Assembly: GCA_965662175.1 (NCBI GenBank)
Contig: CBFIGT010000056.1
Coordinates: 1 to 15,255 of the forward strand
Reading direction: 5' to 3'
Length of the DNA stretch: 15,255 bases
Source of the DNA: Arcobacter sp.
GTDB taxonomy: Bacteria; Campylobacterota; Campylobacteria; Campylobacterales; Arcobacteraceae
A program made the position numbers and the translations under genes. The stretch's first letter is position 1. Every line of letters starts with the position of its first letter. Below, piece after piece: positions 1,448-8,942 of the stretch. Below the pieces are notes generated by a model. The model was not told the DNA's origin and did no database searches. It saw only the letters and a list, made by a program, of their open reading frames with translations.

Positions 1448-2203
1448 CTATTGTTTCCCCAGAGAAAACTCATCTTTATTGATATTTTTTCTATAAAAAT
1501 TCCAAACTTTTAAGACTTTTTCTTTTAGTTTTGCCATATTTTCACAACTTATCACAGCTATTATGATTTTTTTGTTTTTACTATAAGAGAAGCTTTTAAA
1601 ATCTTCTGAAAATAAGCTATTTAAAAAAGCTTCATTATCCAAGGTTTTTATATAGATTTTTGCAAAAAGATTTGTTTTGGACTCTTTTCTTTTTATATAA
1701 TCTTTTAACTCATCACCTTTTATATCAAATCTCTCAATATACTCCAAAGAAGAGTTTTCATAAAATCTGTTTTTTATCTTCATATATGAAAAATCAAAGT
1801 TCTCATAACTTCTTCCATTACTTAGAATATCTGTATAAAAAAATGTTGAACTTTCATCAAATTTTAATCTAAAGGGCTGAGCAAATTTTGCCTCTTTGTA
1901 TAAAATAAGTTCATCATTTAAAAACTCAAGATTAGAGCTATTTTTTAGAGTGATATTTATATAGTTTTTTGAAGAGTATTTACTATTTGAGGGATATATT
2001 TTTGTAGCTGATTCTGTTGTCAAAATCAAATTTGAGTTATCAAGTTCAAAACTAGTTTTGATTTTATCTTTTGGAAAAATTCCCTCACCAATATTTAGTA
2101 GTTTTATATAATTTTCATCATCATTAAACAAATAATACCGTGATGGTAAATTTAACCTCTTTAAATAAAATTTATCATCTGTAAAACTAAACTTTAAACT
2201 CAT
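1448..2203 (-). CDS. ureD: Urease accessory protein UreD (UreH)
   Basis: LLNIGEGIFPKD...LILTTESATKIY and 'DILSNGR...E.F.F' motifs of the UreD family; lies downstream of the urt operon. Confidence 0.85.
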   Translation of the reverse strand: MSLKFSFTDDKFYLKRLNLPSRYYLFNDDENYIKLLNIGEGIFPKDKIKTSFELDNSNLILTTESATKIYPSNSKYSSKNYINITLKNSSNLEFLNDELILYKEAKFAQPFRLKFDESSTFFYTDILSNGRSYENFDFSYMKIKNRFYENSSLEYIERFDIKGDELKDYIKRKESKTNLFAKIYIKTLDNEAFLNSLFSEDFKSFSYSKNKKIIIAVISCENMAKLKEKVLKVWNFYRKNINKDEFSLGKQ

Positions 2204-2337: not shown

Positions 2338-2366
2338 TTGACAAAAAAATATTTTTTGGATAGTAT
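2338..2366 (+). promoter_or_regulatory. Sigma70-type promoter pointing antisense to the urt operon
   Basis: TTGACA (2338-2343), 17-bp spacer, TAGTAT (2361-2366). No plus-strand CDS follows it. Confidence 0.6.
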
Positions 2367-2372
2367 ACGTCT

Positions 2373-2435
2373 ATAATTCGCTTTCGAGCAGCCCCGTCTA
2401 ATCACTAGACGGGATAAACAATTTACTTACTTTTT
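2373..2435 (+). ncRNA. Candidate small antisense RNA (possible RNA antitoxin); 3' end uncertain
   Basis: Begins about 7 nt after the -10 box. Contains a GCU-UUCG-AGC tetraloop hairpin (2380-2389) and a perfect 8-bp stem CCCGUCUA/UAGACGGG (2393-2413). Complementary to the 3' end of the PemK-like frame. Confidence 0.45.
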
Positions 2436-2568
2436 CACATATTAATTTATAATCATTTTTGTTTATCATTCCTATTCTTGTCATTAATCGTTTTTTATCA
2501 AATATTTTTAATTGAAGTATCATAGCTGAGTTTTGGATTTCACCTTTTAATAGAACCTTAAACTCATA
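2398..2568 (-). pseudogene. 5'-truncated PemK/MazF-like toxin remnant (C-terminal 56 codons)
   Basis: Manual translation: YEFKVLLKGEIQNSAMILQLKIFDKKRLMTRIGMINKNDYKLICEKVSKLFIPSSD*. This matches the PemK/MazF C-terminal pattern S-x3-4-Q-h-(R/K)-x-h-D-K-x-R-L-x2-(R/K)-I-G followed by an amphipathic helix. The N-terminal half is absent because urtE ends 7 nt upstream. Confidence 0.7.
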
Positions 2569-2575
2569 ATTTCTT

Positions 2576-3271
2576 CTATACCGACATATACTTCTTAACT
2601 ATCTCATCACTTAAGTGATTTATTTCTCCTGATGCTACTACACTTCCTCTATCTAGTACATAAAAATCATCTCCATGTCGTCTTGCAAATGGTAGTTTTT
2701 GTTCAACTAACATAACTGTCATCTCTTCTTCTTTTGTAAGATAATCTATAACCTCACCTATTTGTGCTACGATATTTGGCTGAATTCCCTCACTTGGTTC
2801 ATCCAAAATCAGAAACTTAGGCTCAATACACAAAGCTCTTCCAATAGCTAATTGCTGTTGTTGACCTCCACTTAAATCTCCACCTTTTCTATTTGCCATA
2901 TCTTTAAGTACTGGAAATAAATCATAAATCTTATCGGGTACTTTTTTGATTTTATTTCTATTTGCTAATACTCCAATCTCAAGATTTTCTTTAACTGTTA
3001 GTTGTGAAAATATCTCTCTTCCTTGGGGAACATATCCTATTGCAATACCTGCTCTTTTATCAGCACTAAGTTTTGAAATCTCATTTCCATCATAGATTAA
3101 TTCTCCACTTTCAATAGGAAGTAAACCCATAATTACTTTTGATAAAGTTGTTTTTCCAACTCCATTTCTTCCCATAATACAAGTACATCGGCCCTTTTTT
3201 ATCTCCAAAGTCAAATCCCAAAGGGTATGACTTTGTCCATAATATTGATTTAAATTGTTTATTTTTATCAT
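2576..3271 (-). CDS. urtE: Urea ABC transporter ATP-binding subunit UrtE
   Basis: Walker A GRNGVGKTT, YVPQGREIF, signature LSGGQQQQLAI, LDEPSEGIQP; last gene of the operon. Confidence 0.95.
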   Translation of the reverse strand: MIKINNLNQYYGQSHTLWDLTLEIKKGRCTCIMGRNGVGKTTLSKVIMGLLPIESGELIYDGNEISKLSADKRAGIAIGYVPQGREIFSQLTVKENLEIGVLANRNKIKKVPDKIYDLFPVLKDMANRKGGDLSGGQQQQLAIGRALCIEPKFLILDEPSEGIQPNIVAQIGEVIDYLTKEEEMTVMLVEQKLPFARRHGDDFYVLDRGSVVASGEINHLSDEIVKKYMSV

Positions 3272-8284: not shown

Positions 8285-8593
8285 ATGAAAAAAGAAGAAA
8301 TATTAAATAAACTAAAAGAACTAAAACCTATTTATAGTAAAGAAGGTTTCATAATTAAAGGACTTTTTGGTTCATACTCAAGAGATGAAGCCACATCAAG
8401 CAGTGATATAGATATTTTAATTGAATCAACTCCTGATTTTGCTTCAAAATATGGATTTAAAGCAATTAATAGAGTAAATGAGATAAAAGAAGAAATAAGC
8501 TCTATTTTTGGTGTACCTGTTGATTTAGCTGATAGTTCAGGAATGGGGAAAACTGGAAAAAAATTTATTATTGATAGAGCCATTTATGTCTAA
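8285..8593 (+). CDS. Minimal nucleotidyltransferase (MNT/MntA-like antitoxin)
   Basis: LFGSYSR...SDIDIL (GS-x10-DxD) and VDL motifs; 102 aa; paired with a HEPN gene. Confidence 0.9.
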   Translation: MKKEEILNKLKELKPIYSKEGFIIKGLFGSYSRDEATSSSDIDILIESTPDFASKYGFKAINRVNEIKEEISSIFGVPVDLADSSGMGKTGKKFIIDRAIYV

Positions 8594-8942
8594 AGAATCT
8601 ATTTCTAAGATATATTTAATTATTGAAAAAATTGAATATATAGAAGAAATTGTAAAGAATTGTGGAAATATTTCTACTGCCCTAGAAGATTTAGTAACAT
8701 CAAGACCTGCAATACTTATGCATCTAACTGCAATAGCAGAACAATTTAATAAATTAAAACAATCCCATGCCGATGATATTTTAAGTGAATTTAATAAAGA
8801 TGATTTAAAAGGTCTTTATGTCGTAAGAACTTATATTGCACATGATTATGAGGGTGTTAATATTCCTATTATAGAGTGGATAATCAGATTTGGCTTACCT
8901 AAATTCAAAACTCAATGTCTAAAAGTAATTCAAAGATACTAA
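8586..8942 (+). CDS. HEPN/DUF86 ribonuclease (HepT-like toxin)
   Basis: Intact RxxxxHxY motif (RTYIAHDY). Start placed at ATG 8586 (MSKESISK, 8-bp overlap with MNT) rather than 8571. Confidence 0.85.
   Translation: MSKESISKIYLIIEKIEYIEEIVKNCGNISTALEDLVTSRPAILMHLTAIAEQFNKLKQSHADDILSEFNKDDLKGLYVVRTYIAHDYEGVNIPIIEWIIRFGLPKFKTQCLKVIQRY

Follow-up and report, generated by a model that had tools for sequence, protein, structure and literature searches.

Introduction

RNases of the MazF fold are known from two kinds of toxin-antitoxin systems. The first are type II modules of the MazEF/PemIK kind, which include B. subtilis EndoA and S. aureus MazF, and the second are the type III systems ToxIN, CptIN, AbiQ and TenpIN, in which an RNase with a Kid/MazF-type fold is accompanied by a small structured RNA. 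The antitoxin RNAs of the ToxIN kind adopt a pseudoknot fold. In the type I pairs TxpA/RatA and BsrG/SR4 the toxin and RNA genes are convergent, as they are at the loci described below, but the overlaps are longer and the toxins are small membrane proteins, whereas here a 135-aa RNase is faced by an almost fully paired 40-nt RNA. According to the accessible part of the type III literature, the antitoxins of these systems are repeats that lie upstream of the toxin gene, are co-transcribed with it and are cut by the toxin (PMC8167048); the RNA described below differs in being present in one copy, downstream, on the opposite strand, under its own promoter and in the form of two simple hairpins. 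A single structured non-coding RNA is also found in AbiF/AbiFr, a type III system in which, as far as the accessible text goes, this RNA adjoins the toxin gene and binds and inhibits the toxin (PMC12737573), which is a HEPN protein and not one of the MazF fold.

The closest counterpart of our locus comes from Campylobacter jejuni. Shen et al. 2016 reportedly paired cjpT with cjrA as a type I pair in pVir of strain 81-176. In the accessible passages of three other papers cjrA is cited as an RNA antitoxin of 81-176 (PMC7826846, PMC10470494, bioRxiv 10.1101/2020.01.02.893479); two of them call it type I and one places it on pVir. By these citations, one member of the family that we describe here, that of pVir, has a known RNA antitoxin.

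A toxin remnant and a predicted convergent RNA gene in the window

The DNA analysed here, referred to as the window, is a stretch of 15,255 nt from Arcobacter sp. The initial annotation of this stretch held that the apparently empty spacer between urtE and ureD encodes 56 codons of a PemK/MazF-like C-terminus on the minus strand and that a promoter facing it drives a structured antisense RNA. The features that we now assign to this region are given in Table 1.

Table 1. Features of the urtE-ureD region (positions in the window)
Feature	Position	Strand	Basis
ureD	1448..2203	-	flank
-35 box TTGACA of RNA promoter	2338..2343	+	promoter scan; relatives
-10 box TAGTAT, 13 nt ahead of hairpin 1	2361..2366	+	promoter scan; relatives
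Predicted 43-nt small RNA	2373..2415	+	ends inferred from mapped ends of pVir CJpv3
Hairpin 1 GCU-UUCG-AGC, 3 bp on UUCG loop	2380..2389	+	folding; covariation
Hairpin 2, 8-bp GC stem	2393..2413 (arms 2393-2400/2406-2413)	+	folding; covariation
3' remnant (~49 codons + stop) of solo-clade PemK/MazF gene	2398..2548	-	Pfam, homologue alignments, metagenome contigs
20-nt copy of ureD start, left after urtE	2554..2573	-	matches 2190-2209
urtE-like ABC ATPase	2576..3271	-	flank

The spacer does contain a minus-strand open frame (2398-2598) that ends with the stop codon at 2398-2400, as proposed. The Pfam model PemK_toxin matches this frame with E=0.0024, which is under the curated cut-off, NCBIfam gives a weak MazF match only and PADLOC matched none of six proteins. 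Full-length PemK proteins are much more telling: 21 of them (134-150 aa) match the remnant with 55-90% identity (best E=5e-19) and PF02452 is present in all 21, so the search for PemK homologues that had been suggested as a check gave a positive answer. The homology is confined to about 2401-2548, i.e., to the 3' third of a toxin gene, and the number of codons has to be lowered from 56 to about 49, the initial YEFKVL of the frame coming from the copy of the ureD start. The remnant begins 3' of both the catalytic Arg and Thr motifs, which are conserved in full-length relatives; judged by its sequence, the toxin copy of the window is a dead relic.

The promoter facing the remnant (TTGACA-17-TAGTAT, 2338-2366) is the best among eight sigma70 sites, and shuffled sequences are expected to contain 8.3 of them; taken alone, it is not beyond chance. 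The start at 2373 is predicted because the mapped start of the pVir homologue lies 7 nt past its -10 box, and this offset agrees with the position given earlier. The predicted 43-nt RNA would consist of a 5' AAUU tail, a 3-bp UUCG hairpin and a GC stem; both hairpins were present in the initial annotation and both hold, including the perfect 8-bp pairing of the second one and the complement of the toxin stop codon inside it. The hairpin region is unusually stable (z=-3.6; 2 of 200 shuffles were equally stable). The 50-nt RNA unit has 46% GC against 27.8% for the genome, and in this sense the GC-rich patch reported for the spacer is real, but it is invisible at a window size of 200 nt. There is no U tract downstream of hairpin 2 in the window, nor, across relatives, on either strand, and the reading of the hairpins as a terminator was rejected on these grounds. 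Rfam 15 gave no family at the gathering threshold for the window (three sub-threshold chance matches) and a tRNA and nothing else for 18 related loci.

It is the combination of elements that stands out. A promoter followed after 12-14 nt by a UNCG hairpin occurs at five distinct sites in the 2.6-Mb genome, and since all five lie at the 3' ends of toxin-clade genes or remnants, the composite pattern is far beyond chance. The window RNA scores 34.6 bits against our covariance model R1 (the window copy belongs to its training set). Two extra model matches in the same genome (C81 and C121; 19-21 bits) lack the promoter and the UUCG hairpin, and a general genomic repeat was rejected as an explanation. 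The possibility that the whole arrangement consists of chance patterns in an AT-rich spacer could draw on the chance-level promoter and the low Pfam score, but it is refuted by conservation throughout the family (homologues, covariation, model matches and the genome-wide composite pattern), and we regard it, together with the related idea of a type II relic that lost its protein antitoxin, as having practically no chance of being correct.

History of the copy

The break that probably deleted the 5' two-thirds of the toxin gene is located at about 2549-2553. In six loci from the same genus the gap between urtE and ureD is 13-15 nt, compared to 375 nt here (coordinates of protein matches), and the toxin is absent from all 29 other ureD loci examined. 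A metagenome contig matches 2318-2548 with one difference and then diverges, its loose end reading as the missing toxin sequence, and a contig of a second metagenome matches 2097-2548 with five differences, beyond which the likeness to the window ends. These diverging contigs imply that a longer toxin gene with the same promoter and RNA adjoins ureD elsewhere. It is likely, from these comparisons, that the 5' two-thirds of the toxin and both catalytic motifs were removed here via a join to a ureD start. None of the metagenome contigs compared spans 2548-2558, and the join may be a misassembly. An insertion with target duplication (the spacing of the repeat is 364 nt) is disfavoured, as a deletion from a ureD start into the toxin fits the metagenome contigs better.

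The UreD protein of the window is 71-75% identical to that of another genus and 64-65% identical to those of its own genus, the ureD gene has no urease subunit genes behind it, and UreC is found on a tiny contig (C249); the urease region has likely been transferred or rearranged. Elsewhere on the plus strand, the window contains a transposase fragment (PF13701) at the contig end (99-677), an addiction-module antitoxin (weak Pfam match) followed by a ParE frame (E=1e-9) with no ATG, GTG or TTG at the expected start (945-1426), and a nucleotidyltransferase with a HepT-like partner, which is an ordinary MNT-HEPN module (8285-8942).

A clade of PemK/MazF toxins without a protein antitoxin

To gather related loci, we searched at the level of the genus and of the phylum and scanned collections of genomes and metagenomes. 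According to their record titles nearly all of them come from Campylobacterota, with one from Rickettsiales and one from Halobeggiatoa; in the phylum of the Rickettsiales MAG, one of 101 genomes was positive, and it was the MAG itself. One locus (L027) is titled Paceibacteria, and since a sample of that class gave Campylobacterota genomes, the title is likely wrong. A scan of IMG/VR yielded 37 pattern matches and no confirmed one, and GenBank Campylobacter phages do carry the toxin gene. The taxonomic range of the toxin-RNA family found in this way is a lower bound.

An ORF of 60-135 aa lies just upstream of the toxin in 7 of 83 solo loci (three of these ORFs encode other known proteins; four loci with short upstream DNA were excluded from the count) compared to 30 of 30 ordinary type II MazF controls, where the upstream ORFs have 67-124 aa and abut MazF and where 5 of 13 scanned match MazE or RHH. 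No antitoxin Pfam was found among 36 scanned upstream ORFs of solo loci. The initial suggestion that a protein antitoxin could have been lost together with the 5' half of the gene finds no support, since intact relatives lack one, and the same absence of a small upstream ORF speaks against a type II relic. The usual upstream neighbours of solo toxins are RadC, restriction-modification subunits, ATPases and housekeeping genes, and many solo toxins overlap or abut an upstream gene. A gene of 219-225 aa overlaps the toxin start in ten loci (L006, L007, L010, L024, L027, L038, L051, L063, L070 and L076), and the one product scanned is RadC. The frequent presence of HsdM, HsdR and AAA ATPases nearby suggests, as far as gene content can tell, that the toxin-RNA modules reside in defence islands.

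In a tree of 74 proteins, 47 solo rows lie on one side of a 100/100 branch that separates them from type II MazF, with the pVir toxin nested inside; the tree has few columns and a midpoint root, its controls come from one family and three rows without genomic context were labelled by assumption. The window remnant was left out of the tree, and its 77-90% identical relatives were included. Eight members with long RNAs (pVir, CJIE4 and Helicobacter) form a 100/100 subgroup nested in the solo clade.

Databases label the solo-clade genes as 'type II PemK/MazF', and full-length members indeed resemble type II toxins in their MazF fold and in the catalytic motifs RP and PLT. A profile search of structures matches EndoA and S. 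aureus MazF, and MazF structures only. The fold predicted for a full-length toxin (pLDDT 75) is that of MazF (Z 13-14; Z 13.9 with an rmsd of 2.1 over 97 residues), the scores being 9.3 for CptN, 5.0-5.6 for ToxN and 5.1 for AbiQ. The solo toxins differ from type II MazEF/PemIK in the absence of an upstream antitoxin gene, in the convergent RNA, in about 20 more N-terminal residues, which are predicted to form a helix with low to middling confidence, and in a higher positive charge (+7.3 per 100 aa, n=86, compared to +2.4, n=30, the kin being not independent).

A conserved two-hairpin RNA at the toxin 3' end

Opposite the toxin strand, nearly all loci have a -35 box, a -10 box and, after a gap of 12-14 nt in which the AAUU tail is included, a 3-bp hairpin that a short linker connects to a GC stem. 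A rule-based finder detected this unit in 83 of 103 non-duplicate loci (five mis-parsed rows were excluded from the counts). Of the 20 loci without a finder match, two are type II-like; the covariance model later matched 10 of the remaining 18 (E<0.05 or less; one spurious), and the loci still without a finder or model match mostly have long RNA forms. The alignment of 3' flanks that had been suggested earlier therefore did reveal a conserved promoter, a UUCG hairpin and a covarying second stem, and comparison of relatives supports the proposed combination of a PemK relic with an intact convergent RNA gene.

Four to six of the six TTGACA positions are kept in 56 of 73 relatives, TATAAT is found in 50, and the distance from the -10 box to the hairpin is 12-14 nt in all 73, although the finder permitted 8-22 nt. 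The loops of 73 distinct copies are UNCG in 60, UMAC in 3, GNRA in 2 and other in 8, and a loop of one of the first three classes appears in 65 of 73 copies when the promoter strand is read, compared to 1 of 73 when the toxin strand is read. RNAalifold returned the identical two helices for a MAFFT alignment of 74 RNAs, in which 91% of cells are paired against 74.6% in shuffled alignments (0 of 500) and at most 62.5% in slid controls. Compensatory change was seen in 9 of 9 pairs, a count that kin inflate; hairpin 1 has 99% of cells paired with all three pairs compensatory, and hairpin 2 has 87% paired with 6 of 6 pairs compensatory. The family consensus is that of two nested hairpins, and besides the shape some sequence is kept, namely the AAUU tail, C-UUCG-G, the short linker and AAA behind stem 2.

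With the RNA model, 79 of 80 metagenome loci give a match at the end of the toxin gene, on its antisense strand; part of this set repeats loci used for training. Among 30 ordinary type II MazF genes taken as controls there was no match at E<0.05. Across eight genomes of the genus, all 13 RNA matches above 30 bits are located at toxin ends. The predicted overlap with the toxin coding sequence varies among 77 short RNAs: 23 have none, 6 overlap by 1-2 nt, 39 by 11-18 nt and 9 by more than 30 nt. In 37 of 73 loci a co-directional gene lies directly behind the RNA promoter, for example in a terminase-toxin-portal operon.

Several loci depart from the common layout. Three tandem toxins have their own RNA each at L088 (928-2440), and L231 has two such cassettes. 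L175 contains a second copy of the RNA (1499-1548), next to which no toxin ORF ends. In L021 (2390-2510) about 70 nt are inserted in the loop of stem 2, and the stem base and hairpin 1 are intact. In L250 (700-800) the toxin match covers residues 1-130 and hairpin 1 is short by about 12 nt, which is either a true deletion or an assembly collapse. A broken toxin and no convergent promoter are found in L124 and L108. Toxin frames read through the RNA gene, with 30-60 extra residues, in L059, L061, L062, L067, L098, L102, L103 and L113; the frame of L102 continues into the next gene, and those of L103 and L113 share the reading frame of a long gene upstream. The window's own genome (G000) has five clade loci, on C37, C4 (two), C56 and C82, of which two are full-length and three are remnants, with promoter and RNA in all five. 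The toxin would appear to decay first in this genome, and the orphan RNAs might act in trans.

Long RNAs with a 5' tail, two hairpins and a similar 3' GC stem are found in L122, L123, L125, L105-L107, L109, L114 and L117 (Campylobacter, Helicobacter-type). Model R1 has no match on the pVir, CJIE4 or Helicobacter RNAs (L122, L123, L125), and their kinship with the short RNAs is drawn from position, promoter, 3' stem and the toxin tree.

Relatives in Campylobacter jejuni

The gene pVir0047 on pVir of C. jejuni 81-176 is a member of the toxin clade. The small RNA CJpv3 was mapped on the minus strand of pVir (31119-31043, 77 nt) and is Northern-positive (Dugar 2013, PMC3656092), and in the accessible data of the same work its start-site step is 16164 compared to 28 for the toxin mRNA. 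By these coordinates CJpv3 starts 7 nt past its -10 box, and its end, 2 nt beyond the GC stem, leaves 5 nt to the stop codon. For CJE1470 of CJIE4 in RM1221 an antisense start is listed at the matching promoter, with a step of 74 compared to 221 for the toxin, so the accessible lists give mapped transcription starts at the RNA promoter for two C. jejuni members. The toxin and RNA of CJIE4 are located between terminase and portal genes (L123, 1486-1920), and the CJIE4-type module is also present in phages PC10 and CJLB-13.

The pair cjpT/cjrA is probably pVir0047 and CJpv3, because pVir0047 is the only annotated toxin on 81-176 pVir and because the corresponding slot of IA3902 pVir is occupied by a type II pair of the YafQ kind. 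The pointer to cjpT/cjrA made in the initial annotation proved to be correct. The window locus shares with it a toxin of the solo clade (100/100), the absence of a protein antitoxin, a convergent promoter with a start 7 nt past the -10 box (transcription of the convergent small RNA from its own promoter being observed in the relatives and predicted in the window) and an RNA that ends, in the window by prediction, just beyond a CCCCGUC-type GC stem, this shared 3' stem and layout being judged by eye. The differences are that the window RNA has about 43 nt, with a single 3-bp UUCG hairpin preceding the GC stem, whereas CJpv3 has 77 nt and two longer hairpins, that the toxin of the window is a remnant, and that the lineages are chromosomal and environmental as opposed to a plasmid.

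Toxin protein has been detected in C. jejuni. In the accessible text of Clark 2014 (PMC3995785) the CJIE4 toxin is present in all five isolates and no MazE was found, and that of Clark 2018 (PMC5749857) reports PJ16_09875, a protein of the plasmid that corresponds by its tag to the pVir toxin; a search in 12 of the 21 supplements of the latter paper gave no match.

How the RNA may act

We are highly confident that the convergent RNA of the toxin clade constitutes a family of RNA antitoxins. The alternative, which we consider unlikely, is that a weak or rare-cutting toxin needs no strict antitoxin and that the RNA is a decoy substrate or a regulator, or that the palindrome serves a mobile cassette as a signal in DNA or at transcript ends. 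Growing cells do tolerate the toxin protein in the proteomic reports accessible to us, the cassette is found in many unrelated contexts, and L250, a full-length locus, has a damaged hairpin 1. This alternative is, however, difficult to reconcile with the citations of the pVir RNA as an RNA antitoxin, with the strict coupling of toxin and RNA (the 13 strong matches and the tandem toxins of L088), with the confinement of RNA-type tetraloops to one strand and with the persistence of RNAs at the three loci of G000 where toxins decay.

The fuller statement, that the window holds a relic of a solo PemK/MazF gene next to an intact RNA gene whose product is an antitoxin that binds to the toxin protein and blocks it, has in our judgement an even chance of being true as a whole. 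According to it, the RNA would be transcribed from its own strong promoter and trimmed at its 3' end to just beyond the GC stem, and it would dock close to the active site of the basic MazF dimer through its single-stranded AAUU tail or its 3' A-rich end. If the element were lost or transcription blocked, the RNase would become free, which would result in plasmid or prophage addiction and possibly in phage defence. The orphan RNA of the window has a candidate role here: it might, in trans, shield the cell from the two full-length clade toxins of its genome.

The main competitor is a type I mechanism, a Campylobacterota-wide version of cjpT/cjrA, in which the RNA pairs with the 3' end of the toxin mRNA and leads to its decay (RNase III) or in which convergent transcription interferes; we consider it a serious possibility that nevertheless falls clearly short of an even chance. 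The layout is convergent and perfectly complementary at every locus, the free 5' tail could serve as a toehold, and there is no terminator ahead of the RNA gene, so that the toxin mRNA would read through it and be fully complementary. On pVir the RNA is in large excess in the accessible start-site data, and the accessible citing papers label it 'type I' or antisense. Coding overlap can be argued in both directions: 48 of the 77 predicted RNAs overlap coding sequence by at least 11 nt, whereas mature CJpv3 ends before the stop codon and the 23 RNAs without overlap include no coding sequence at all, which favours binding. The toxin protein reported from growing cells argues against tight shut-off and for binding over antisense, although its detection is also compatible with a weak or rare-cutting toxin. 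Further, an RNA of about 40 nt is nearly all in hairpins on both strands, and its motifs and spacing are nevertheless conserved, while a cis-antisense RNA would not need sequence conservation. Binding is also favoured by L021, which keeps the stem base around its insert, by the co-directional genes faced by 37 of 73 promoters, since duplex-triggered cleavage would cut inside operons, and by the more basic character and extra N-terminal helix of the toxins in comparison to type II MazF.

Protein binding has its own difficulties. The hallmarks of known type III loci, i.e., upstream, co-transcribed repeats, are absent, the toxin fold is nearer to MazF than to CptN or ToxN, and in the accessible RM1221 data the start-site step of the RNA is below that of the toxin. 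Most tentatively, and at somewhat less than an even chance, we propose that a MazF clade of canonical fold filed as type II is held by a convergent two-hairpin RNA of about 40 nt that binds the enzyme. This would be a new type III layout with the smallest stand-alone RNA antitoxin; it could link MazEF with ToxIN and would give grounds to reclassify cjpT/cjrA; orphan RNAs could then immunise against incoming addiction modules.

Concluding remarks

Beyond cjrA and CJE1470, neither the family nor its minimal RNA nor a binding mechanism is described in the literature covered by our search; subscription papers, Shen et al. 2016 and the Weinberg 2017 supplement lay outside this search, and the latter two are perhaps relevant to novelty or mechanism. 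A covariance model is now available for an RNA family absent from Rfam. The 40-nt RNA and the 135-aa toxin are small enough for assay and crystallisation, so that the system lends itself to a sharp test. Binding of the RNA to the protein, if true, would mean that RNA can replace the protein antitoxin of an ordinary MazF fold, which bears on the origins of type III systems. The toxin-RNA family explains many 'orphan' PemK/MazF genes of Campylobacterota that have no MazE, and the modules carried by pVir and by the CJIE4 prophage of C. jejuni likely stabilise those elements.
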